From assembly GCA_030065985.1 (NCBI GenBank), contig JASJCM010000012.1:136-64135 (forward strand): a stretch of 64,000 nt of DNA, given 5' to 3'. The position numbers and the translations under genes are program-made. Positions 27,480 through 64,000 of this stretch are shown here, one piece after another. Every line of letters starts with the position of its first letter. The first letter of the stretch is position 1. The notes below the pieces were generated by a model, which was given only the letters and a program-made list of their open reading frames with translations, did not search any database and was not told the origin of the DNA. The DNA comes from Woeseiaceae bacterium (GTDB lineage: Bacteria; Pseudomonadota; Gammaproteobacteria; Steroidobacterales; Woeseiaceae).

Positions 27480-28061
27480 CTAGGGAAGTTTCGTTAGTAC
27501 GTCGTCGACCGGCTGGCGCACCTGCGATGGGGTGATTTTCGGGTAGCCGAACCAGATCATGCCCACGACGAACTCTTTGGCCGGATCGGCACCGATAATC
27601 TCGAAGAGACCTTCGTCGCGCGTTATCGGACCCGACGTCCACTTCGAACCGATACCCGCCTTCCACAGATACAACATGAAATTCTGCACAGCGGCGCTAC
27701 ACGCAGCATAGTCCTCACGCTCACGCAGCTTGTCGTCATCGTAGCGGCATGTGACCACGAGCCAGCCCGGCTTCTCGCTCCAGGTCTTGCGCTTGTGCTC
27801 GCCCAGCTCCGGCCCTTTCTGGGCGCAAACAATCTCGGCGCACAGATCGATTACGCGACCAACCGTTTCCCTGCCGAGCAGAATGAAACGCCACGGTTCG
27901 GTCATGTAGTGATTCGGTGCCCAGGTGGCCACCTCGATGGCCTCGTGTACGAGATCTTCGGGCACCGGCGTCTGGATGTACTGGTCGATCGTGCGGCGCC
28001 CGCGCAGCACTCGTGCGAACTCTCTCAGCTCCTGCGTTTCGTAGCTCGGTGCTTTCTTCAC
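27480..28061 (-). CDS. nitroreductase family protein (YdjA-like)
   Basis: Start trimmed to the GTG at 28061, which forms a GTGA overlap with the upstream transporter's stop. Motifs RRTIDQY and APNHYMTEPWRF. Confidence 0.8.
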   Translation of the reverse strand: MKKAPSYETQELREFARVLRGRRTIDQYIQTPVPEDLVHEAIEVATWAPNHYMTEPWRFILLGRETVGRVIDLCAEIVCAQKGPELGEHKRKTWSEKPGWLVVTCRYDDDKLREREDYAACSAAVQNFMLYLWKAGIGSKWTSGPITRDEGLFEIIGADPAKEFVVGMIWFGYPKITPSQVRQPVDDVLTKLP

Positions 28062-29353
28062 CCGTCGCCGCCTTGATTGTATTTTCGGCCGAGCATTACA
28101 CCGACGGCCACCCAGATTGCTGCAATCACGGCACCGACTGCCGCGACCCCTGTCAGAGTGAGTCCGAAAGCGCCGACTATGCCCGTGTAGAACCACGCCG
28201 TCATGACATCACCGCCCCTGTAGACAACAGTATCGATCACAGGTTTCGCTTTGTATCGAGTTTCAGAGTCAACGAGCGTAAACAGCATTTCGCGGGCCGG
28301 GCGCGTGATCGCGTAGTTGCCTGCTCGACGAACAACTTGTACGACAAAGACAGTCAGCGCTGTCGGATTGACCGAGACTACTGTCCACGCCACAACCATA
28401 ATCGCCGGAACGAGAGCGAGGGTCCTCGGCATTCCCGCTTTTGTTGTAAGTCGACTCGTTGCGAATAATGCAGTCACCGCCGCGAGCACATTCACGGCAA
28501 GGTCGATATTCGCCCAGATCTGAGATCTGCGTACCTGATCCAGGTCGCCTAACGGCTTACGAATCTCGTAGTACAGGAACGTGCTCATCGTTACGTACAG
28601 CAGAATGAACACGCCAATCCAGAGCAGATACGGGCTGCCGACAAACTCCTTGAACCCTGAGAATGGGTTGGCGCCAAGTCGATCGTCTCGCACGAGATCT
28701 TTGGCTGTGTCCGGGTTCCCGAGAGCCGTCGAACGTAATTTATTGAGTGCCACCATGATCGGAAGTGGCGTGAGCAAGAGAACAGCGCTAACGAACAGCA
28801 TGTTCAGTGATCCGATGTTATCCGCAAACGCGCTAACAAAAGCCGGACCTGCGATTGCCCCGGTCGTGGCACCAACGGCGATGACACCGAACAGACGTTC
28901 GGCCTGGCGACTGTTGTACAGCCCGGACATGAAGGTCCAGAAGACGGACAGGTGGAACAGCCCGAATACACTTGTCCAGACATAGTAGATGCGGTTGACG
29001 ATGTCGTTCCCGCTCATCGTCGCGCCGGCTATATAGAATCCAATGAACGAGAACGCGAAGAATACGTAGACGCTCGGGACGATGAGATTGAAGCGGACTC
29101 GCGAGATGACCGCCCCGTAAATGCTCACTGCTACCGCACTGAAGAAGAACGTTGACGTCCACAACCAGCTCAGCTGCTCGTTGGTCCAATCGGATGACAA
29201 TGAGTCCCGGACCGGTCGCAGGATGTACCAGGCGCACATGACAAAAAACACCCAGAGGAACGACAGAACCGTCGCCCGGATCTCGTTCGCTTCTACATTG
29301 GCTGCAGACTTGAAGATGCGCTTCAGCGCGCCAGATTGTTCAGCGTCATCCAT
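28058..29353 (-). CDS. Npt1/TLC-like (ATP:ADP antiporter family-like) MFS-type transporter
   Basis: 431 aa with about 12 TM helices. N-terminal block LSFLWVFFVMCAWYILRPVRDSL resembles the Npt1/Npt2/TLC family from memory. Substrate unknown. Confidence 0.5.
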   Translation of the reverse strand: MDDAEQSGALKRIFKSAANVEANEIRATVLSFLWVFFVMCAWYILRPVRDSLSSDWTNEQLSWLWTSTFFFSAVAVSIYGAVISRVRFNLIVPSVYVFFAFSFIGFYIAGATMSGNDIVNRIYYVWTSVFGLFHLSVFWTFMSGLYNSRQAERLFGVIAVGATTGAIAGPAFVSAFADNIGSLNMLFVSAVLLLTPLPIMVALNKLRSTALGNPDTAKDLVRDDRLGANPFSGFKEFVGSPYLLWIGVFILLYVTMSTFLYYEIRKPLGDLDQVRRSQIWANIDLAVNVLAAVTALFATSRLTTKAGMPRTLALVPAIMVVAWTVVSVNPTALTVFVVQVVRRAGNYAITRPAREMLFTLVDSETRYKAKPVIDTVVYRGGDVMTAWFYTGIVGAFGLTLTGVAAVGAVIAAIWVAVGVMLGRKYNQGGDG

Positions 29354-29409: not shown

Positions 29410-30084
29410 TTAGTCTGCAGCCGCCATCCGCTTCGCGACCGCGAGCAGCTCGTCAGCCGGCAGACGCGTCTTGTACTCGGGGTTCACGTAGCTGAATGCG
29501 ATCGAGCCGCCGGAGTCAACGGCGAAAACGGCCGGCACGGGCAGCACGCCATGGCGTTCCATAGACGACCCGCGGTATCCGTCGCCCTTCTTCTTTACGT
29601 AGTCGACAGTGCGCTGCCCGGACTTGAAAGCGATGCCAAGCGCAATTGCTGCCTGAGCGTCAGCGTCCGACAGGATTGTATAGTCGAGCCCTTCTATATC
29701 TTCGCGGGCCTGGTTCTCGAGACTCTCGTAGAGCAGCTCCGGGCGGTCGCCGCTGAGGAACAGAACATCGATGCCGAGTTCGCTGATTTCCGGGACCACG
29801 TGCCGCATGTCAGACAGATAGACGTTGCAGTAAGGGCACCAACCACCGCGGAACACGATAATCAGAGCGGGCTTGTCGAGCTCTTGCGGATTGAAGTCGA
29901 AGGGCTGCCCCTCGACGTTGCGCACGATGAACCGAGGAGCCGGGTCACCTGCGACAAGCGGCTGAATGTCGTCAGCGGTGGCTGCGACAGGCACATCGGC
30001 GTGGCCCTGGCGAATCGCATGACTGCATACGAGACTGAAGGCCATGACGGCAGCCAGTATGGCGGGAATAAGTGAACGGGGCAT
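29410..30084 (-). CDS. exported thioredoxin-fold / peroxiredoxin-like (AhpC/TSA) protein
   Basis: Signal peptide. Redox motif GGWCPYCN. Confidence 0.75.
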   Translation of the reverse strand: MPRSLIPAILAAVMAFSLVCSHAIRQGHADVPVAATADDIQPLVAGDPAPRFIVRNVEGQPFDFNPQELDKPALIIVFRGGWCPYCNVYLSDMRHVVPEISELGIDVLFLSGDRPELLYESLENQAREDIEGLDYTILSDADAQAAIALGIAFKSGQRTVDYVKKKGDGYRGSSMERHGVLPVPAVFAVDSGGSIAFSYVNPEYKTRLPADELLAVAKRMAAAD

Positions 30085-30133: not shown

Positions 30134-32092
30134 TTACATCGCTTTTTCGAGCAGATCCTCGGCACTGATAGAGGCGACGCCACGACTGCGCGCTTTGGCG
30201 CGGTACATGGCCTGGTCTGCCTCGCGCAGCAACCCGGTCAGGGTGTTGGCGTTGTCCGGATAAAGCGCGAGTCCGATGCTCGCAACGCAGACGAGCTTCT
30301 CGCCCTTGATGCCGTAGGGTGCCTCGAGCGCGCTCGTCAGTCGCCTCGCAAGCTTCTCCGCGGTGTCATGATCGACGTCCGGAACTAGCGCAACAAACTC
30401 GTCACCGCCGGGGCGTCCGATAATGTCACGCGAACGCAGGCCCGTGCGCAGACGTCCAGCCGCAATTTTTAGTAGCTCGTCGCCGACTTCATGACCGAAC
30501 TGGTCATTCACGCCTTTGAACTCGTTGAGGTCGATAAACAGCAGCGCTCCGGTCGCATCGTCTTCGCTCTGACTCAATCGCTTCGAAGCATTGCGCTCGA
30601 AGCCACGGCGATTCAGCACACCGGTGAGCGGATCCGACATCGCGATCGAATCCATGTGTCGTTCTTTGGCCTTGCGGTCGGTGATGTCGATGAAGGTCGC
30701 GGCGATATCGTCACCAACAGGCTCGCAGATGACACGCAACCAGCGCTGGGGCGTGTCACCGTTTTTCTGGCGGACTTCTACATCCAGAACCTGACCGTTC
30801 GCGGCTGCGTTTGCAAAGCGATCCACGAGGCTGGTCGCCTCTTGATCGTCCATGCCGGTTACCGCCCGACGCATGACCTGAGTCGCCGAGCAGTCGACTA
30901 TGTCCTCGACCGGTACGCCAAGGAATCTGCCAGCGGCCGGGTTTGCGAAATTGCTGCGCAGCTTGCGTTCGCCGTCAGCGCCTCCGGACCACCTGAACCG
31001 AACGACACCATTCACTGAATGGTCGATGAGTGTGCGCAGCAATTCCTCGCTCTTGCGAACTTCGCTCTGCGCTCTTTCGACATCGCTGACATCGCGGAAC
31101 ATGAGTACCTGCCCGCCGCGCGCCGACGTCCTGTGAGTATCGATCTTCGATACCTGCACATGCAGGAAACGCCCGGTATCGGTGAGCATCTTCTGCGGCT
31201 CACCTGAGTCCAGCGCTTCGTAAACTTCGTGGGCACCGGTGCCGAACAAGGTCTCGAGAGGCGTGCGCAGCGCTCTGGCCTCGTCAACGGATAACATGGT
31301 CTCGGCAGTGTGGTTAAGCCCGATGACGCGGCGATGCTCGTCGATCACGACGACCGGGTCCTGCATGTTCTGGAAGACCGTCTCGTACGCAAGCGGCGTG
31401 AACTCGATGATTTGCTCGCCGATGATCAGCCACGCGTAGATCGGCAGCATCGCCGCAAAGACCAGTGGCACGTAGGAAATGGTGTTCGGACCGACGCCCA
31501 GGTCATAGGCCACCGTCGTACAGATCGGCAGCACACAGGCAGCGACCAGTAAGAAGAGTCCGCGACGGTGTGCCGGTGCGACTGCAGAGCTGTGCGCAAG
31601 AAGCGTCAGGATCGCGGCACCGATCAGGAGATAGCTGTACGGCAGATGGACAAAGAGAAACCACGGTCCCCATTTCGCGGGACGTGTCAGGTACTCGCCG
31701 GATTCGTTGACGAACGGCGCGTACCACATGAATTCATGGTGGACATTGGTCGCGGCGAGCCCGATTGATACGAGCGGAACGAAGCTCAGGATCGCAAGCC
31801 GGACTGCCGACGTTTCTGTGCCCGTGTACTCACGAAAGCAGACATAGGCGACGACAGGTACTAAAGCCGTGCCGACGAAGTGCCCCGTTCGGCCGATCGA
31901 AAAGCCCACGAAGGTCGTCGACAGGAGTTCGATGCTGCCACCGACCACCCAGAGGCTGACTACGATGAACAGCACGCCGATGGGAACGGTGCCAACGTCT
32001 CGTCTGAGAACGACAAGACGCAGCCCGAGCAGCGCGTAGCACGCTGCCGCGAAGAGCAGAATTCCTGCGATGGCGACGTCGAGATTCATCAA
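30134..32092 (-). CDS. sensor diguanylate cyclase (N-terminal 7TM domain, 2 PAS, GGDEF)
   Basis: 652 aa with seven N-terminal TM helices and PAS-like segments. Active site GRPGGDEFV, with an RxxD I-site (RSRD) five residues upstream. Confidence 0.88.
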   Translation of the reverse strand: MMNLDVAIAGILLFAAACYALLGLRLVVLRRDVGTVPIGVLFIVVSLWVVGGSIELLSTTFVGFSIGRTGHFVGTALVPVVAYVCFREYTGTETSAVRLAILSFVPLVSIGLAATNVHHEFMWYAPFVNESGEYLTRPAKWGPWFLFVHLPYSYLLIGAAILTLLAHSSAVAPAHRRGLFLLVAACVLPICTTVAYDLGVGPNTISYVPLVFAAMLPIYAWLIIGEQIIEFTPLAYETVFQNMQDPVVVIDEHRRVIGLNHTAETMLSVDEARALRTPLETLFGTGAHEVYEALDSGEPQKMLTDTGRFLHVQVSKIDTHRTSARGGQVLMFRDVSDVERAQSEVRKSEELLRTLIDHSVNGVVRFRWSGGADGERKLRSNFANPAAGRFLGVPVEDIVDCSATQVMRRAVTGMDDQEATSLVDRFANAAANGQVLDVEVRQKNGDTPQRWLRVICEPVGDDIAATFIDITDRKAKERHMDSIAMSDPLTGVLNRRGFERNASKRLSQSEDDATGALLFIDLNEFKGVNDQFGHEVGDELLKIAAGRLRTGLRSRDIIGRPGGDEFVALVPDVDHDTAEKLARRLTSALEAPYGIKGEKLVCVASIGLALYPDNANTLTGLLREADQAMYRAKARSRGVASISAEDLLEKAM

Positions 32093-56635: not shown

Positions 56636-56983
56636 TCAGCTACCTCGGTATGTCGAGTAGGACCAGGGAGATGCGAGCAGCGGCACATGGTAATCCTCGG
56701 CCGAATTAACGGCGAAGCGAATCACTACCGTGTCAAGAAATGCCGGGTCGGCAAGGGTCACGCCGCGGCCCCGGAAATAGACGCCGATGTCGAACTCGAG
56801 TTCGTAGGTCCCGGTGACAAAGACCTCATCCTCAAGCAACGGATAAGGCGTTCGTCCGTCTTCGTTCGTGGTCGCGCTCGCGAGAAGTTCGCGAGTATCG
56901 CGCACACTGAAAAGTCTTACGTCGACATTCGCCGCCGGCCCCCCGTGTGACGTATCGAGAATGTGCGTCGTCAATCGACCCAT
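56636..56983 (-). CDS. uraH: 5-hydroxyisourate hydrolase (transthyretin-like)
   Basis: Start trimmed to MGRLTTHILDTSHGGPA (ATG at 56983, after a GGGGG run). C-terminal signature YSTYRGS. Confidence 0.88.
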   Translation of the reverse strand: MGRLTTHILDTSHGGPAANVDVRLFSVRDTRELLASATTNEDGRTPYPLLEDEVFVTGTYELEFDIGVYFRGRGVTLADPAFLDTVVIRFAVNSAEDYHVPLLASPWSYSTYRGS

Positions 56984-57097
56984 TCTGCCCCCTTTATTCA
57001 CATCGTCTTGTTGCGATCGATTATACGCTGAAGGCGGCACTGCGCGGGCCTTCTGCCTGTGGTAGTTTGATCGAAAGAACAAGAACGGGGGGCTCGG

Positions 57098-57679
57098 ATG
57101 AAGAACTCCGACGCGATATCCAGACGTGGGTTTCTGAGGTCAGCCGGCGCGCTGGCCGGCTCGTCGCTGTTTCGACTAAGCGGAACGTCCCTGGCGGCAA
57201 TCGCGCAGGCCGCCTGCTCCGCGCGCGACGACGCGGCCGCGTTTGTGACGCTCGATAAGGCCGAGGCACGAGACTATGCCGCCGCAATTGCCCGGCTGAT
57301 ACCAACCACCGATACGCCGGGCGCCGGCGATGCCGGCGTGATCTGGTTTTGGGACAACGTCCTCGGCAATTACTACGCCCATCTTCTTGAGCCCGTGCGT
57401 GGCCTTCGCGACCGGCTGCTCACTGAGACTGATGGTCGTTTTGCGGATCTCGACGCGGATTCTCAAGATGCGGCTCTCAAGGCAATCGAAGACGACGGTC
57501 GATTCGAAATCTGGCGCATCCTGACGTTCTTTGGTTTCTTTGCGATGGCAAAGCACGGTGGCAACAAAGACCATCTGAGCTGGGACCTGGTCGGCTACAA
57601 CGGTCACCATGCCGCCTGGCAGCCGCCTTTCGGGTATTACGATGCCGAATACCTGAAGGAGCGCGCCGATGACGGGTAA
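57098..57679 (+). CDS. gluconate 2-dehydrogenase subunit-3-like small subunit, Tat signal
   Basis: 193 aa. Twin-arginine signal SRRGFLRSAGALAG. Directly precedes, and overlaps, the GMC flavoprotein gene. Confidence 0.75.
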   Translation: MKNSDAISRRGFLRSAGALAGSSLFRLSGTSLAAIAQAACSARDDAAAFVTLDKAEARDYAAAIARLIPTTDTPGAGDAGVIWFWDNVLGNYYAHLLEPVRGLRDRLLTETDGRFADLDADSQDAALKAIEDDGRFEIWRILTFFGFFAMAKHGGNKDHLSWDLVGYNGHHAAWQPPFGYYDAEYLKERADDG

Positions 57680-59330
57680 CGTCACGTTCCCTGAGCGCGA
57701 GCCCGTCGATTTCGTCGTCATTGGCTCGGGCGCCGCCGGCGGCATCATTGCCAAAGAACTGTCCACGGCCGGGTTCGACGTCGTCGTGTTTGAGCAGGGC
57801 CCGTATCGCAGAGCCGAGGACTTCACTCACGATGAGTACTCGGTCCTGTTCGAGGATGAATTGCTCGGCGGTGGTCCGCAGCTTAGCGGCCAGACCTATC
57901 GCGAGTACGAGCATGAGGAAGCGACGATGCCGGGGCTGCAACCGGTCCGCTATGCGCAGACGGTTGGCGGCAGCAGCGTGCACTTCACGGGAAACTTCTG
58001 GCGATTTCGCGAGCTCGATTTCAATGAACGCAGCATGCTCGGGCCGATCAGCGGGACTAACTTCGCCGACTGGCCGATAACCTACAGGGAGCTTGAACCC
58101 TATTACACGCGCGTCGACTGGGAGATCGGCGTATCCGGCGAGCCTGGGCCCAATGACTCGTTTCGCTCGAAGCCGTTCCCAATGCCGCCATTGCCAATCA
58201 AGTCATCCGGCGTACTGCTCGAGAAAGCGGCGAAGAAACTCGGCCTCACCGCCCAGCAGGAACCGCATGCGATTCTGTCGCAGCCGTTTAACGGCCGCAG
58301 CCCGTGCATGCATTGCGGTCACTGCATGTGGTTTGGCTGCGAATTCGGCGCCAAATCGTCGACGCTTGCGGCCATGATCCCGCTCGCCGAGGCAAGCGGC
58401 CATTGCGAAATACGCGATCGCTCTGCCGTTTTCGGTATTGAAACGGATGAGAGCGGCCGGGCCAGCGAAGTGATGTATTACGACAAGGACGGCAACGAAC
58501 GCTCGCAAAAAGCAAAAGCCGTTATCGTCTCGGCCAACGGCGCCGAAACAGCGCGCCTTCTCCTGCTCTCGGCCAACGAACAACACCCTGACGGACTGGC
58601 CAACTCGTCGGGATTCGTCGGGCGCAACCTGATGTTCAATGCGCATTCCGCCGTTGACGGCGTATTCGAACACCCGCTCAACGACTACCGAAGTGTGCAG
58701 GTCTCGAAAATCATTCACGATTTCTACGAAAACGATGAACAGCGAGGCTTCTACGGCGGCGGCGGCATCGATGCACGCCCACTCTGGGTCACAACGCCGA
58801 TTATTCACGCGATGATGGGCATGCCGCCAGACGTGCCGAAATGGGGCGCCGCGTGGAAGCAGGAAATCGCCCACAACTTCACCCGCCAGATGTCGATCAT
58901 CGGCTCGACGACGTCGCTGGCACTCGATCGCAACAACATCACGCTGCATCCGGAGAACACCGACCAGTGGGGTCGGCCGGCGTTGCGCCTGACGTATCGC
59001 GACCACGACGACGACCTTTCGATGGCGCGGTTCCTGCGCGACCGTTCGCTGGAACTCTTCGACGCCGCCGGCGCGAAGAAATTCTGGGCGCACCCGGTCG
59101 TTCCGACCAACGGTGGCGAGCACCTGCTCGGCACCGCCCGCATGGGTGACGACCCGACGTCGTCTGTCGTTGATCGCTACCACCGCAGCCACGACGTGCC
59201 CAACCTGTTTATTTGCGACGGCAGCAGCTTCGTCACGTCGGGACGCGGCCAGCCAACCATGACGATCATGGCGTTGGCCTTCCGCGCCGCCGAACACATT
59301 GCCGCCGCCGCCCGTTCCAACCAGATCTAG
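57669..59330 (+). CDS. GMC-family FAD-dependent oxidoreductase (large subunit)
   Basis: 553 aa. FAD motif DFVVIGSGAAGG and a conserved C-terminal GMC block HLLGTARMG. It has no signal peptide of its own. Confidence 0.85.
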   Translation: MTGNVTFPEREPVDFVVIGSGAAGGIIAKELSTAGFDVVVFEQGPYRRAEDFTHDEYSVLFEDELLGGGPQLSGQTYREYEHEEATMPGLQPVRYAQTVGGSSVHFTGNFWRFRELDFNERSMLGPISGTNFADWPITYRELEPYYTRVDWEIGVSGEPGPNDSFRSKPFPMPPLPIKSSGVLLEKAAKKLGLTAQQEPHAILSQPFNGRSPCMHCGHCMWFGCEFGAKSSTLAAMIPLAEASGHCEIRDRSAVFGIETDESGRASEVMYYDKDGNERSQKAKAVIVSANGAETARLLLLSANEQHPDGLANSSGFVGRNLMFNAHSAVDGVFEHPLNDYRSVQVSKIIHDFYENDEQRGFYGGGGIDARPLWVTTPIIHAMMGMPPDVPKWGAAWKQEIAHNFTRQMSIIGSTTSLALDRNNITLHPENTDQWGRPALRLTYRDHDDDLSMARFLRDRSLELFDAAGAKKFWAHPVVPTNGGEHLLGTARMGDDPTSSVVDRYHRSHDVPNLFICDGSSFVTSGRGQPTMTIMALAFRAAEHIAAAARSNQI

Positions 59331-59345
59331 ACCGGAGACACCGAG

Positions 59346-59798
59346 ATGAAACACCTCCTTCTGCTGCTGCCGCTACTCATGCTCATGGGCTGTGAAGTCA
59401 AAGTCGACAAGGATGCCGATGTTGAGTACCTGCTGATGCCAGGCATGGAAGACCTGGACCTGCCGTTCTCGTCCGCGGTCCGCGTCGACAACACGCTGTA
59501 TCTGTCCGGCAACCTCGGCAACATGCCGGGCACCATCGAACTCGCCGAGGGCGGCATTGCCGGTGAGACGCGTCAGACGATGGAGAACATCAAGGCCGTG
59601 CTCGAGCAATTCGGCTCGTCGATGGATGAGGTCGTCAAATGCACCGTGTTCCTCGCGGACATGGCCGAATGGGGCGCAATGAACGAGGTCTACAAGACCT
59701 ACTTCGAGAACCCGCCAGCGCGCAGCGCACTTGGCGCAAACGGCCTCGCACTCGGGGCGCGCGTCGAGATCGAGTGTATTGCGGTCCTGCAGCCCTGA
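59346..59798 (+). CDS. RidA/YjgF family protein with a lipoprotein signal peptide
   Basis: Signal peptide MKHLLLLLPLLMLMGC, followed by a full RidA fold (..VKCTVFLADM..PARSALG..VEIECIA). Confidence 0.78.
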   Translation: MKHLLLLLPLLMLMGCEVKVDKDADVEYLLMPGMEDLDLPFSSAVRVDNTLYLSGNLGNMPGTIELAEGGIAGETRQTMENIKAVLEQFGSSMDEVVKCTVFLADMAEWGAMNEVYKTYFENPPARSALGANGLALGARVEIECIAVLQP

Positions 59799-59801
59799 CG
59801 T

Positions 59802-61595
59802 TTACTGCTTGAGCAACTCGTCGCGGCGCTGCCTGAGCGACCTGAGCCGGCGCCGGTCGAGAACGTCGCTCAGGTTCTCCGAGAGGACCTCATCGCCAAG
59901 GGCCGCGAGTGCCTCGCGCCAGCCGTCGGTAATCTCGAGTTTGACGGTCTTCAGGTGAGGCGGTCGGGACCGCGTAGCCTTGAAGGCTCGCTCGTGTTCG
60001 ACGAGGATCAGGCTCCAGTCAGACGGCTCGTACATCATGCGCTCCAGGCTGCGACCCTCGTTGTGGATCAGCGTATCGAATACGTACATCGCGTCCCACT
60101 GCGATGGCAATGCGCAGGGCGCGCTGCTGCCGCGCCCGCTCGTTGAGCGTTGTGCTTCATCGCTCGCGCGATTCGGCACGAACTGCAGCGAACCGTCCTC
60201 GCCATTGACGGTGCGAATGACGGAAACGGGCACCATATCCAGATCGATCAGTCGATCGATTCGATAAGCAGCGACATCAGGATAAAAACCCTTGCCGGTT
60301 CGCCTGGCGAAGAGCGCCGAGACCGTATGCGTGCCGTCGCTGACACGAACGACCGTACGCTCGGACTCTTCATCTTTGGTTGACTCCACGATATCGCCGT
60401 TTCGGAGCAGGACCTGCAGTTGCTCCGGCGACATCTTGCCGGGGCGTGCACCGACCTGACGCGGATGTGCGATCGGCGAATAAGGCTCACTGCCGTCCTC
60501 GTTGTGAACGAGAAGCTCGCCGTCTTGCAGCACGAGCGCGTTACCGCTGCCCTTGTAGTAGAAACCGAGCATGCCCGTATCGACCTCGACCACCAGCCCG
60601 TCGAAGCGCTGCAGTACCCTGCGGTTAGGCGTCGGCGTATGGCCAACGACGACGCGATCCGCGCCGATCGACTCGAGTGCATCCTCGAGCCGATGTTTCT
60701 CGATCAATCCGCTGCACTTGACGTTGCCGCGATACCACAGCGGGCCGTCGCTGCTCAGTACGGCTGAGTCGCTAAGTCTCTGCACGGCCTTGATCGCGTC
60801 GAGCACATCACGCGACTCGTCGAGCGCGGGAACGTAGTTGGTGACGAGCCGTTCATGGTCGTAAAAGCTGTCGGTCGGCAACAGGACGCCGGCATCGGTC
60901 AGCGTTTCGAGCGCATGCACGTAGGTCGAGAGGTTCTTTCTCAGGTTCTTGTTGACGCCTTCGAGCCCCATCTCAATGACGACAGGCGGCAGCCCCCCAT
61001 GCACAAAGGCAGCACGATTGATCACCGCAATAATCGGCTTGTCGAGTAACCACTTACCGTACTTGCCGTCGGCGCTGAACGCCTCGGCCAGGGCAAAGTA
61101 ACCCTGCGGGAACGTGTTGTCGAAACTGTCCCTGAGCGGCGTGGACGCTCCGCCACGGCGGGCTGCCCAGGCCTCGAACCAGCGATCGCGTTCGCGAGAG
61201 GTCTCATCCTTCGCAAACGCGGCATACTCGGCTTTGCTAACGTAACGAAGGTCGCCAATCATGTTCATCATTTCATGATTGCCGATCAGGACATGAACAT
61301 GGCCGCCGGCCTCCTCGGCCTCGCCTTCGAGCCGCATCATGAGATCCATGGCGTCGCGCGAGCGCGGCCCGCGATCGAGCAGATCACCGATGACGACGAG
61401 ATGCGTATCGCCACCAGCCCAGTTGAGCTCGTCATCCAGGATGTCGACGTTGCGCAGCGTCTGGACCATTGCGTCGAAGGCGCCGTGCACATCGGAGATC
61501 GCGACCACCCTGCTGGCACCCTCTACAGGTCCGTCCTCTGCGAATGTGACAGGGGTCGCGAGTATCACGAACAGGAAGGCAGCGAGCATGCGCAT
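59802..61595 (-). CDS. exported metallophosphoesterase (PPP/calcineurin-like) fused to a Fam20/CotH/PI3K-PI4K-like kinase-fold domain
   Basis: Start trimmed to MRMLAAFLFVILATPVTFA (the ORF-track start at 61616 is a TTG). MPE motifs occur in order: ISDVHG, GDLLDRG, GNHE, VHGG, GHTP. The C-terminal 200 aa carry AAYRIDRLIDLDMVPVSV, VFDTLIHNEGRS and LILVEHERAF. Confidence 0.7.
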   Translation of the reverse strand: MRMLAAFLFVILATPVTFAEDGPVEGASRVVAISDVHGAFDAMVQTLRNVDILDDELNWAGGDTHLVVIGDLLDRGPRSRDAMDLMMRLEGEAEEAGGHVHVLIGNHEMMNMIGDLRYVSKAEYAAFAKDETSRERDRWFEAWAARRGGASTPLRDSFDNTFPQGYFALAEAFSADGKYGKWLLDKPIIAVINRAAFVHGGLPPVVIEMGLEGVNKNLRKNLSTYVHALETLTDAGVLLPTDSFYDHERLVTNYVPALDESRDVLDAIKAVQRLSDSAVLSSDGPLWYRGNVKCSGLIEKHRLEDALESIGADRVVVGHTPTPNRRVLQRFDGLVVEVDTGMLGFYYKGSGNALVLQDGELLVHNEDGSEPYSPIAHPRQVGARPGKMSPEQLQVLLRNGDIVESTKDEESERTVVRVSDGTHTVSALFARRTGKGFYPDVAAYRIDRLIDLDMVPVSVIRTVNGEDGSLQFVPNRASDEAQRSTSGRGSSAPCALPSQWDAMYVFDTLIHNEGRSLERMMYEPSDWSLILVEHERAFKATRSRPPHLKTVKLEITDGWREALAALGDEVLSENLSDVLDRRRLRSLRQRRDELLKQ

Positions 61596-61694
61596 CGACG
61601 AGTTCAGCACGTTCAAGGTGTCCGTTACGAAGGAAGCTCAGTGTAGTGGCTATGCTAGACTTTGACCACCAAAGCAACGGACAGATCAACAACA

Positions 61695-62747
61695 ATGACA
61701 CCGCTGCGAATCGTTCTCATTCTGATCCTTGGTATGACTCCGCTTGTCTTGCAGGCGGATGACGAGGAGAAGAAGGTCGCGCCGCTGTTCGCGAGCAACG
61801 ATGTGCTTGCGATCACCATAACCGCGCCGTTCTCCGAGATCATGGAAGACCGTGAGTCTGACGAGGAATTTCCCGCCACCCTGACTTACACCGACGCGGA
61901 GGAAGAAGAGGTCAGCGTCGATCTCGAGCTACGAACCCGTGGACGCTATCGGCGCCAGTCCCGCACCTGTAGCTTCGCTCCGCTCCGGCTCAACTTCAAA
62001 AAATCTGCGGTCAAGGAAACTGTCTTCGCAAAATCCGACAAACTCAAACTCGTGACGCATTGTCGTGACAGGTCACGTCGCCATCAGCAGTCCCTTATCA
62101 CCGAGTATATTGCGTATCGGACGTTTAATATCGTCACCGACCTCAGCTTTCGTGTGCGACCGCTGCTGGTCAGGTACGTAGACTCCAGCGGCGAGGAGAA
62201 GGACCGCGAGGCCTTTGCTTTTGTCATTGAGCATCGCGACCAGCTTGGCAAGCGAATCGGGTTAAACACCAACGAGATTGAAAAGACCAGCATCGAGGCA
62301 CTGGACGGCGCTCACACCAACCTCGGCTCCATGTTCCAGTACCTGATTGGCAACACGGACTTCTCGCCGATACGCGGTGCCGACGGCGAGCCCTGTTGTC
62401 ACAACAACATGCTGTTCGGCGATACGAAAGGCGAGATTCTGGCCATTCCCTACGACTTTGACATGTCCGGTCTCGTGAATGCTCCCTACGCCACCCCGAA
62501 CCCGCGCTTCAAATTGCGCAACGTAAGGCAGCGGCTTTATCGTGGCCGCTGCGCCAACAAAGAGCACATCGACGGATCGGCGGAGACATTCATCCGTCAC
62601 AAAGCCGAAATTTATGCGTTGCTCGACAAGCACTCAGACCTGTCCACTAAAACCAGGATAGTAACGGTTCAGTACCTCGACCAGTTTTACGCCATTCTCG
62701 AGAACGACAGGAGACGCACGTCGCTGCTCACGGACAGGTGCATTTGA
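61695..62747 (+). CDS. exported CotH-like atypical kinase family protein
   Basis: Start trimmed to MTPLRIVLILILGMTPLVLQA. CotH-like blocks: LRTRGRYRR..APLRLNFKK, KLKLVTHC, EYIAYRTFN, FQYLIGNTDFS and IPYDFDMSG. Confidence 0.6.
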   Translation: MTPLRIVLILILGMTPLVLQADDEEKKVAPLFASNDVLAITITAPFSEIMEDRESDEEFPATLTYTDAEEEEVSVDLELRTRGRYRRQSRTCSFAPLRLNFKKSAVKETVFAKSDKLKLVTHCRDRSRRHQQSLITEYIAYRTFNIVTDLSFRVRPLLVRYVDSSGEEKDREAFAFVIEHRDQLGKRIGLNTNEIEKTSIEALDGAHTNLGSMFQYLIGNTDFSPIRGADGEPCCHNNMLFGDTKGEILAIPYDFDMSGLVNAPYATPNPRFKLRNVRQRLYRGRCANKEHIDGSAETFIRHKAEIYALLDKHSDLSTKTRIVTVQYLDQFYAILENDRRRTSLLTDRCI

Positions 62748-62751
62748 TTCG

Positions 62752-63708
62752 CTAAGTCTTGGCGAGCCAGTCGATGATGATCTTCGTCAGGCGTGGGTGG
62801 ATGAAGTAGCCGATCGAACTGTGCGGGTTCGCCTTGCCGTACCGCACCGCAAGATTGAAGATTCGATAGTCATGCACGGCACTGACTTGCCGTTTGCGCA
62901 GCATCGTCCTGAAATCATCTGCAAGCGTTGCATCGTGGCAGGTGTAGTCATCCTCGGCTGACAGGTTGTGCCAGGAGATGACGTTACTCGGGAAACGCGC
63001 TTCTTCACGCTCCTGTGCGCCAAGCAGACGCTTCTGCACGATGCGATCGCCGAGCGGTGAGCCGAGCGTCACCCACTGATCGACCTTGCAATCGCCGTAC
63101 TCGGGACACGTCTCCGTGTCGTTCGACAATTCCCACAGCACATCGTACGCGACCACACTGCCGGTGCCGTGCGTTACAAGCATGATGTGTTTGTTGGCGT
63201 CCATGAGTTCGCAGATCTTGTCGCGTACTCGCGCGCGAGCCTCGTCGGCGAAACCGTCTTCGTTGTTCAGATAAGCAGCGAAGTCCTTCGCCATCCTGCC
63301 GATGACCGGCATTCGCATCCCGACCACGCTGGAAACCGTCGCGCCGATATCCATGAAGAATTCGGGGAGTGCCGACTTGCCGGGCAGCTTGTCGTACATG
63401 CGAATGCCGAATTTTTTGCGCGGCGCTATCTGCGACAGGGACTGCAGCACGTTGCGACGATCACCAACGTCGAGTTTCTCGTCGTACGTTTTGCCCCTGG
63501 CCGCGAGTACGCCCGCGTTGAGATCGCCGTACCAGGCAACGTCGACCGGCAACGCATCGAAACCAGCCACCTGCTCCGGGTAGTCGCGCTCAACGCCCTT
63601 GCGCAAGGCAGTGCGAGCAAGCTCCAGGTAGGTCTCTGCGGCCGGCTTGAAATCCCGACCATGCACGATGAGAAGACTGAAGTCCTTTTGTTCCTCTACG
63701 GCCGCCAT
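62752..63708 (-). CDS. alpha/beta-hydrolase-like protein lacking the canonical GxSxG elbow
   Basis: 318 aa with no signal peptide. Contains LLIVHG, then LVTHGTGSVVAY where GHSxG would be expected, then TLGSPLG. Confidence 0.45.
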   Translation of the reverse strand: MAAVEEQKDFSLLIVHGRDFKPAAETYLELARTALRKGVERDYPEQVAGFDALPVDVAWYGDLNAGVLAARGKTYDEKLDVGDRRNVLQSLSQIAPRKKFGIRMYDKLPGKSALPEFFMDIGATVSSVVGMRMPVIGRMAKDFAAYLNNEDGFADEARARVRDKICELMDANKHIMLVTHGTGSVVAYDVLWELSNDTETCPEYGDCKVDQWVTLGSPLGDRIVQKRLLGAQEREEARFPSNVISWHNLSAEDDYTCHDATLADDFRTMLRKRQVSAVHDYRIFNLAVRYGKANPHSSIGYFIHPRLTKIIIDWLAKT

Positions 63709-63716
63709 TGTAATCC

Positions 63717-64000
63717 CTACTGGTAGTCGTCCTCGCCGCCGTCACGCCGCGTCATCATGGTCAGGAATGGCCCGGACAAGGTCTTGCCATATTCAAGCTT
63801 CCAGATGATAAGCGTCGCCCAGACAAACGTGAACGATATCACCCCGGCAATACCGAGTGCCCCGATGCCGGAACCCAGCCCGACACCGATTGCGACAAAT
63901 ATGTACATGGCGTCGGATGGCTGATTGAGCGTAAAGCGAAAACGCACCGCGGCAACCACGCCGGCGAGACTGAACGCCAGCGCGATGCTGTTGACGACGA
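63717..64000 (-). CDS. DUF4956 domain membrane protein (partial; 5' end lies beyond the right edge)
   Basis: The frame stays open to the window edge (..VVNSIALAFSLAGVVAAVRFRFTLNQPSDAMYIFVAIGVGLGSG..). The (A/I)VRFR..(k/n)(d/q)P.D..(f/y)(l/i)F.AI..G block matches DUF4956 from memory. Confidence 0.6.
   Translation of the reverse strand, partial: VVNSIALAFSLAGVVAAVRFRFTLNQPSDAMYIFVAIGVGLGSGIGALGIAGVISFTFVWATLIIWKLEYGKTLSGPFLTMMTRRDGGEDDYQ

Follow-up and report, generated by a model that had tools for sequence, protein, structure and literature searches.

Extracytoplasmic phosphorylation in bacteria is generally given little credence, on the view that the periplasm contains no ATP. Among eukaryotic proteins, the FAM20 cluster was described as eukaryote- or Metazoa-specific in a kinome survey (PMC9758233), and bacterial relatives were not mentioned in a Fam20 review and a structure-evolution paper. 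One member, Fam20A, is a pseudokinase that activates a related secreted kinase, and the K271A and D478A mutants of Fam20C are unable to bind ATP (PMC5413348). The type II phosphatidylinositol 4-kinases (PI4Ks; PI4K2A/B) are cytosolic, palmitoylated lipid kinases. On the phosphatase side, the solved chains of the Shewanella cold-active protein-tyrosine phosphatase PPI (1V73, 2Z72) stop after the catalytic domain (336-342 residues), and an (I/L/V)D(S/T)G motif was defined for bacterial-like PPPs by Andreeva and Kutuzov (PMC535813). We examined a 64,000-nucleotide stretch of a Woeseiaceae bacterium from marine sediment (assembly GCA_030065985.1, contig JASJCM010000012.1, positions 136 to 64,135), hereafter the window. 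Its reverse-strand gene at 59802..61595 encodes a 597-amino-acid (aa) fusion protein with the layout of a signal peptide, a Shewanella-like PPP phosphatase and a 206-aa C-terminal kinase-fold domain. The family of this C-terminal domain was found to be split: one subfamily (the intact members) keeps the Lys, DRxxxN and IDH residues, and the other (the degenerate members), including the Woeseiaceae clade, has lost them.

The reading frame was verified by translation, with an ATG start and the stop included in the coordinates; alternative TTG/GTG starts reach 61616 and would add 5-7 residues. The G+C content around the gene is 60%, the same as in the remaining window, and a promoter and terminator scan of 59300-62000 returned nothing exceeding the shuffled expectation. 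In total, 2857 homologues of the fusion protein were recovered. Counts given below for 120 homologues refer to the best 120 of these 2857, a close clade in which all proteins are about 600 aa long. The closest named homologues come from metagenome-assembled Woeseiaceae and other gammaproteobacterial genomes, and the source organisms are sediment heterotrophs. Homologues carry only the database names "metallophosphoesterase" or "hypothetical protein", and some relatives are labelled CpdA in IMG. A preliminary description, made from the DNA sequence alone, had read this gene as an exported phosphatase fused to a Fam20/CotH-like kinase-fold domain with substituted catalytic Asp positions; all the motif strings that it quoted were found, and their coordinates were checked by translation.

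The Shewanella-like (SLP/Shelph) PPP metallophosphatase domain spans aa 26-375 (60471..61520, reverse strand) and was delimited from PDB and Pfam matches and from its motifs. It matched 2Z72/1V73 at E 5e-33, with the next PPP group (Rhilph, 5VJV) at E 0.006, and it scored 48.2 bits against Pfam Metallophos (cut-off 21.5). The PPP motifs [S/A]DVHG, GDLLDRG, GNHE, VHGG and GHTP occur in order, at aa 34-38 (SDVHG, 61482-61496), 70-76 (61368-61388), 105-108 (61272-61283), 198-201 (60993-61004) and 318-321 (60633-60644), all on the reverse strand. The metal ligands of these motifs are invariant in the 120 homologues, and the claim of an intact five-motif phosphatase was upheld. It was noted that the first Gly of the canonical GDxHG motif is Ser or Ala in the window-clade phosphatases. 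A sixth motif, VDTG (aa 338-341; 60573-60584, reverse strand), matches the (I/L/V)D(S/T)G pattern, and its D, T and G were present in 120/120 homologues. The likeness to Shewanella PPI consists of the PPP metal motifs and this last motif; the window protein differs in its extra inter-motif inserts, in a Cys inserted after WYRG and in the added 200-aa kinase-fold domain. Judged by its sequence, the N-terminal domain is a Shelph/SLP PPP phosphatase with a complete dimetal site, and it is predicted to be active.

The C-terminal domain (aa 392-597; 59805..60422, reverse strand) was assigned to a Fam20/PI4K-II-like kinase fold with degenerate catalytic residues from AlphaFold2, Foldseek and a family profile. 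No Pfam or NCBIfam model reached its cut-off on the window domain, where sub-threshold traces were limited to HipA_2 (E 0.11; 12-14.6 bits, cut-off 27) and SCO1664 (E 0.038; 13.3 bits, cut-off 172), and Pfam PI3_PI4_kinase gave no match on the window protein. A profile of 23 close homologues aligned with FAM20A at E 0.42 in three collinear blocks. When 1.84 billion representatives were searched exhaustively with a profile, 1842 clusters passed a limit of E<=1e-3 and 960 a limit of E<=1e-10, and the C-domain family comprises at least 1842 clusters at 50% identity. The family profile was rebuilt from 70 diverse members, and this profile matched FAM20A (E 3.5e-9), FAM20B (2.8e-8) and FAM20C (1.1e-5 and 7e-5), with weaker matches to C. 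elegans Fam20 (E 0.004) and PI4K2B (E 0.12). The blocks xFKP, E-x-AA[FY]xLDR-x-L-x(3)-VP, FDxLIGNxDR and xD[NH]xRxF are collinear between the family and Fam20.

When the 70 members were scanned singly against Pfam, matches were obtained to HipA_2 (18/70; best 6e-7), PI3_PI4_kinase (13/70; best 4e-9), Fam20C (12/70 at E<=1; best 6e-4) and FAM198 (8/70), all of which are kinase-fold families, and none of the 70 sequences matched Pfam CotH. Among ten intact members scanned, the maxima were 25 bits for HipA_2 (cut-off 27), 22 for PI3_PI4_kinase (27.1) and 14.6 for Fam20C (26.8). The C-terminal domain has gone unannotated because the scores of even these ten intact members stay under the Pfam cut-offs.

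An AlphaFold2 model of the C-terminal domain alone (aa 392-597), built with the 70-sequence alignment, reached a predicted local distance difference test score (pLDDT) of 96.9 and a predicted template modelling score of 0.92; a model built with the 23 close homologues was discarded (pLDDT 66 overall and under 50 in the catalytic region). Foldseek returned 128 PDB matches at E<=1e-3, and the top 50 were all PI4K, phosphatidylinositol 3-kinase (PI3K), VPS34 or Mec1 kinase domains. The top twelve were type II PI4Ks, beta and alpha first (E 4e-7 to 1.4e-5, probability 1.0, TM-score 0.54-0.68 on the query), followed by PI3K, VPS34, PI4KIII-beta and Mec1. The kinase fold anticipated in the preliminary description was thereby corroborated, with the model at pLDDT 96.9 and the best type II PI4K match at E 4e-7. 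Its narrower label of Fam20/CotH-like survived in part: the Fam20 half was supported by the family profile (FAM20A at E 3.5e-9) in the same blocks that had been pointed out, whereas the CotH half was not (hhalign probability 2%), and by fold the nearest solved relatives were type II PI4Ks rather than either of the two. These comparisons indicate that the C-terminal domain is a compact protein-kinase-like fold, nearest to Fam20 by sequence and to type II PI4Ks by predicted structure. Formal Pfam tests for Fam20C, PI3_PI4_kinase, HipA_2 and CotH failed, and the domain forms a new, uncurated family in the protein-kinase-like superfamily. By these sequence comparisons, the phosphatase half appears to be an ordinary Shelph member, and the kinase-like half a new family with significant Fam20 similarity as a family.

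The differences from the described kinases are considerable. Fam20 proteins, especially the pseudokinase FAM20A (5WRR, 5YH2), were the best sequence matches among solved structures, with collinear blocks; Fam20 proteins are extracytoplasmic, the window family is predicted to be so, and Fam20 too has a selected pseudokinase member. However, the bacterial domain has about 200 aa against about 400 aa in Fam20, is fused to a phosphatase and falls under the Pfam Fam20C cut-off (<=14.6 vs 26.8 bits). The type II PI4Ks (4WTV, 4PLA, 4HNE, 9HHM) were the best structural matches and share DRxxxN and IDx with the intact members, but their identity to the window domain is 12-16%, their Pfam matches are under cut-off, and the window domain, in contrast to these cytosolic enzymes, is predicted to be exported and is without the catalytic residues. 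More members (18/70) match HipA_2 (PF20613) than any other Pfam kinase family, and SCO1664 (TIGR03843) is weak on the window sequence; neither is described as exported or phosphatase-fused, and the window family stays under the curated cut-offs of both.

We then compared the catalytic positions, which lie on the reverse strand and were located from alignments. The beta3 strand, ALFARR (60300..60317), has A430 at the position of the ATP-binding Lys, where intact members and Fam20 read A-x-F-K. This column holds N, S, A or T in the close clade and never K; at the adjoining position, K431 is found in 94/120 homologues, with R in the window protein and E in 14. AAYRIDR, one of the quoted C-terminal strings, lies at aa 442-448. 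The remnant of the catalytic loop, NEGRSLER (aa 512-519; 60039..60062), has G514 in place of the catalytic Asp and R519 in place of the metal-binding Asn, where intact members read N-x-D-R-x-x-x-N. At the DFG-equivalent site, aligned to LDNARGFG of FAM20A, the window protein has E533-H534 (59994..59999), intact members (I)DH and Fam20 (L)DN. Both substituted Asp positions that had been proposed, G514 and E533, were confirmed, and the beta3 Lys (A430) and the Asn (R519) are gone as well. The columns of Fam20C Lys271 and Asp478 hold A430 and E533 in the window protein. The loss in FAM20A is limited to the alphaC Glu, and ATP binding is retained there; in the window protein, by contrast, the Lys, the Asn and both Asp residues (catalytic and DFG) are gone.

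These substitutions are conserved within the close clade. The alignment of homologues that the preliminary description had proposed as a check showed NEGR and H534 in 120/120 sequences and E533 in 117/120. The C-terminal domain was about as conserved as the phosphatase, both in mean pairwise identity (69.2% vs 70.4%) and in the share of columns at least 95% conserved (41% vs 42%). The conservation of NEGR, E533 and H534 together with this phosphatase-level identity indicates that the C-terminal domain is maintained by selection. By the usual sequence criteria it is a pseudokinase, one kept by selection and not a decaying remnant.

The wider family was assessed through a residue census of the best 150 of the 1842 clusters, a sample biased towards the query profile. 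The catalytic-loop Asp, the Asn and the metal-binding Asp were all kept in 59/150 representatives (about 40%), and the beta3 Lys was present in these 59 wherever the strand could be aligned. The remaining 91/150 were without at least one of the three residues, 59 of them without all three. In the degenerate subfamily, G, A, R, S, P, L or Q took the place of the catalytic-loop Asp, and G, E, A, N or S that of the DFG-Asp. A neighbour-joining tree placed intact and degenerate members on opposite sides, with the window protein among the degenerate ones, and the substitutions were correlated. With a local hidden Markov model of the N-terminal domain, the SLP phosphatase was detected in 85/86 representatives that were 450 aa or longer, in both subfamilies, and the fusion of phosphatase and kinase-fold domain is a property of the whole family. 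Two architectures stood apart: P0154 (671 aa) has the kinase-like domain at 142-296 in two matched stretches and is without the SLP phosphatase, and P0159 (898 aa) is atypical in carrying extra sequence C-terminal of the kinase-like domain.

The predicted signal peptide of the fusion protein (aa 1-19; 61539..61595, reverse strand) was read from the sequence as MRMLAAFLFVILATPVTFA followed by EDG. Judged by eye, it is built like a Sec signal, with charged (n), hydrophobic (h) and small-x-small (c) regions and TFA preceding the cut, and it has no lipobox Cys. A hydrophobicity heuristic found a hydrophobic N-terminal stretch in 65/72 full-length family representatives (about 90%). The mature window protein has two cysteines in all, Cys294 in the phosphatase domain (WYRGNVKC; 60714..60716, reverse strand) and Cys494 in the kinase-like domain (SSAPCALP; 60114..60116, reverse strand), and neither varies among the 120 homologues. 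Of 74 full-length representatives, 63 had both cysteines, 11 had neither and none had a single one (Fisher test; p 2e-13). This perfect co-variation suggests an interdomain C294-C494 disulfide, which fits export and would imply one rigid two-domain unit. The earlier claim of export agrees with the Sec-type N-terminus, with the heuristic and with a co-varying pair suited to an oxidising compartment, and the fusion protein is predicted to be exported via Sec and to be periplasmic or secreted.

The gene context of the two subfamilies differed. Among 84 metagenomic loci of intact members (L084-L087 and L091-L170), the sole recurrent neighbour was a gene of the TLC ATP/ADP-transporter family (PF03219; 37-80 bits, cut-off 21). 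It adjoined the intact member in 30/84 loci, and in 13/23 of those with at least 1.5 kb of flank on both sides, compared to 0/83 Woeseiaceae loci with such a gene beside the fusion gene (p 7e-11 for 0/83 vs 13/23). Two forms of this transporter gene were encountered. The first encodes about 450-570 aa, is convergent with the fusion gene and often comes with a divergent Crp-like regulator of the cNMP-binding type about 40 bp upstream; the second is a TLC-HEAT-cNMP_binding fusion of 920-1060 aa. In the first form, the 3' ends of the fusion and TLC genes usually overlap by about 30-50 nt across many unrelated contigs (L086 6715-6762 and L095 5747-5794; also L101, L107, L114, L133 and L136). Examples of the three-gene module of regulator, fusion and TLC gene are L086 4159-8055, L095 3159-7195 and L136 5884-9851. 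No CotH-like gene was found beside the intact members or in L090, the one degenerate member besides the window's clade with its upstream flank present. Three degenerate members outside Woeseiaceae lie on contigs of 2.5-4.8 kb, which are too short to inform on context.

A TLC-linked module was also sought within the window and rejected. The one candidate, a 431-aa MFS/TLC-like transporter (28058-29353, reverse strand; TLC 23.8 bits, cut-off 21), lies 30 kb off among unrelated genes. The genes adjoining this transporter encode an AhpC/TSA peroxiredoxin-like protein (29410-30084) and a 7TM-PAS-GGDEF diguanylate cyclase (30134-32092).

In the Woeseiaceae, a different set of neighbours was recorded. 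Upstream of the fusion gene in the window lies a forward-strand gene (61695..62747, ATG at 61695) whose 350-aa product is an exported kinase of divergent CotH-like type, assigned from family Pfam CotH matches and synteny. It is followed on the reverse strand by a gene for a conserved 318-aa cytoplasmic protein without a signal peptide and with weak alpha/beta-hydrolase signals (62752..63708) and by a DUF4956 membrane-protein gene that runs past the window end and is represented by its 3' part (63717..64000); the full genes in L001 and L002 carry PF16316. Across the 83 window-clade loci, the order, in reverse of the window orientation, is DUF4956 (+), 318-aa gene (+), about 350-aa CotH-like gene (-) and fusion gene (+). 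The CotH-like gene was found in 72/83 loci, the 318-aa gene in 66/83 and DUF4956 in 60/83, and the arrangement is kept wherever the flank is long enough. The CotH-like gene is divergent from the fusion gene with a gap of less than 100 bp, and the pairing holds down to about 48% identity of the fusion protein; L082 is without the CotH-like gene.

The CotH-like neighbour has its own signal peptide and belongs to a family of at least 5693 homologues. Nine of 19 family members matched Pfam CotH (best E 2.3e-7), with no match on the window copy itself, and the family profile returned no matches in PDB sequence searches. The Lys, Glu, N-x-D and DFD motifs are kept (KLKLV, E-Y-x-A-Y-R, IGNTDF, HNN and PYDFD). 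The neighbour was also considered, in its 361-aa form, as a close paralogue of the C-terminal domain and was rejected, as BLASTP gave nothing significant and hhalign a probability of 2% (E 0.025). A set of CotH, polyphosphate polymerase and DUF4956 genes is described as accessory beside Gram-positive pel loci (bioRxiv 10.1101/768473). The fusion gene likewise has CotH-like and DUF4956 neighbours, but its own domain is not CotH, no polyphosphate-polymerase (VTC) gene was found in its neighbourhood, and an unrelated 318-aa protein is encoded between the DUF4956 and CotH-like genes. The 318-aa protein was itself considered as a VTC polymerase, which was unsupported, the alpha/beta-hydrolase signals being weak and the only ones seen. 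Its similarity to LCAT, Abhydrolase_6 and PGAP1 is weak, and a nucleophile-elbow-like motif, THGTGS, carries an invariant Gly at the place normally taken by Ser or Asp. No phosphate-regulon or transporter genes were seen around the fusion gene.

Our preferred explanation is that the window protein is an exported, active phosphatase guided by a dead kinase domain that serves as a binding or regulatory module. The ancestor may have been an extracytoplasmic enzyme that combined kinase and phosphatase activities towards one substrate, with ATP presumably supplied by the adjoining TLC nucleotide transporter, and the C294-C494 disulfide would lock both domains together. In the Woeseiaceae lineage, the kinase half would have ceased catalysis and most likely shows no normal Mg-ATP binding, because Fam20C K271A and D478A fail to bind ATP. 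This half would persist as a rigid, non-catalytic module for recognition of a substrate or ligand or for gating of the phosphatase site, and a candidate source of the opposing kinase activity in trans is the exported CotH-like kinase of the divergent gene. Candidate substrates include a protein, a lipid head group or a sugar phosphate. We hold the structural and evolutionary description of the fusion with high confidence. The reading as a whole is judged modestly probable, and the mechanism of a recognition module, taken on its own, is tentative and falls slightly short of an even chance.

Several points weigh against this reading. The residue equivalences derive from profile alignments and not from model coordinates, and the polar residues N512, E513, R515, E533 and H534 are conserved, which is compatible with a non-canonical catalytic site. 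The profile comparison of the C-domain and CotH-like families was not significant, and the synteny with the CotH-like gene, seen in a single bacterial family, could reflect no more than a gene order passed on by descent. The losses of the Cys pair cluster in one or two clades, and the co-variation would then reflect few independent events. A bolder reading would make the fusion family a bacterial sister or forerunner of eukaryotic Fam20, in which a disulfide-stapled enzyme writes and erases extracytoplasmic phosphate while the TLC protein exports ATP under Crp-like control, and the window protein would be a Fam20A-like offshoot re-partnered with a CotH-like kinase. We consider this reading unlikely.

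Among the alternatives, the C-terminal domain could be a Fam20A-type pseudokinase that activates or localises the adjacent CotH-like kinase, with the fused phosphatase as a built-in antagonist. Such a role has its precedent in Fam20A (PMC5413348), and it would be consistent with the divergent pair, less than 100 bp apart in 72/83 Woeseiaceae loci, and with a neighbour family that matches Pfam CotH and keeps catalytic-type residues. However, the synteny is found in one lineage alone and L082 lacks the CotH-like gene, as do the surroundings of L090 and of the intact members. Moreover, the partner of Fam20A is a close paralogue and not a remote relative, whereas here the profile-profile probability was 2%, and we regard an activating role as improbable. 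The conserved polar residues raise another question, namely whether the domain is a live non-canonical enzyme, comparable to AMPylation by SelO or glutamylation by SidJ, or a kinase with relocated residues, in which N512, E513, R515, E533 and H534 would form the active site. Pseudokinases with new chemistries are indeed known, as indicated by references cited in PMC7948968, these five residues are invariant or nearly so, the domain is conserved like the phosphatase, and K431 stands beside the lost Lys in 94/120 homologues. This is countered by the loss of all four canonical nucleotide and metal residues and by K431 itself, which is R in the window protein and E in 14 homologues. The variable Asp and DFG-Asp positions of the degenerate subfamily also point to relaxed identity and no new fixed set, and the window clade does not share the link to a nucleotide transporter seen in the intact subfamily. 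We give this alternative little probability.

A further alternative dispenses with signalling altogether. Periplasmic UshA is an exported metallophosphoesterase with a C-terminal binding domain, and the fusion protein, whose layout parallels it, could be a nutrient-scavenging periplasmic phosphoesterase of the UshA/5'-nucleotidase kind, in which the C-terminal module would bind a small substrate, either phosphorylated or a nucleotide. Scavenging is in keeping with the nucleotide binding of kinase folds, with the life of the organisms as sediment heterotrophs and with the name CpdA that IMG gives to some relatives. The catalytic domain nevertheless falls in the PPP/Shelph clade, where those members that have been characterised act as protein phosphatases. 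The Lys and Asp needed for ATP binding are missing, and phosphate-regulon or transporter genes were not seen in the surroundings; a scavenging role appears quite unlikely. The guided phosphatase described above remains our preferred explanation.

No description of an SLP-kinase fusion, of a bacterial Fam20-like protein or of such a periplasmic kinase was found in open-access papers or bioRxiv preprints, which agrees with the earlier remark that the fusion had not been described. The preliminary description had also allowed that the C-terminal domain might be a common, already characterised accessory domain of these phosphoesterases. It is common, with at least 1842 clusters, yet no account of its characterisation was found, so that this objection applies in its first half alone. 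This kinase-fold domain lies unannotated in thousands of database entries that bear the names "metallophosphoesterase" or "hypothetical protein". The intact members resemble periplasmic counterparts of Fam20, a secreted kinase of animals. With the exported Fam20-like fold and the TLC-linked intact members, there is a way to test how ATP could reach the periplasm and how phosphosignalling could operate outside the cytoplasm. The window protein, as a natural loss-of-catalysis variant, provides a system in which the role of a pseudokinase joined to an opposing enzyme can be studied. Should the bolder reading hold, the fusion family would define a system of periplasmic phosphorylation in Gram-negative bacteria that has so far gone unrecognised.

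Finally, we noted several features of the surrounding genes. Downstream of the fusion gene, a convergent RidA/L-PSP gene with a lipoprotein-like N-terminus (59346-59798) ends 3 nt from the fusion-gene stop. It is followed by a GMC oxidoreductase gene (57669-59330), a TAT-signal (twin-arginine translocation) gluconate-2-dehydrogenase subunit-3-like gene (57098-57679) and a transthyretin/HIU-hydrolase-like gene, the whole stretch spanning 56636-59798. The GMC gene pair between the RidA and hydrolase genes is variable and was encountered in 25/83 related loci. In two related Woeseiaceae loci (L001 1-1476 and L002 1-2062), BMC and EutN/CcmL shell genes and an aldehyde dehydrogenase gene were recorded, and these microcompartment genes lie a few kb past DUF4956, beyond the window limits.

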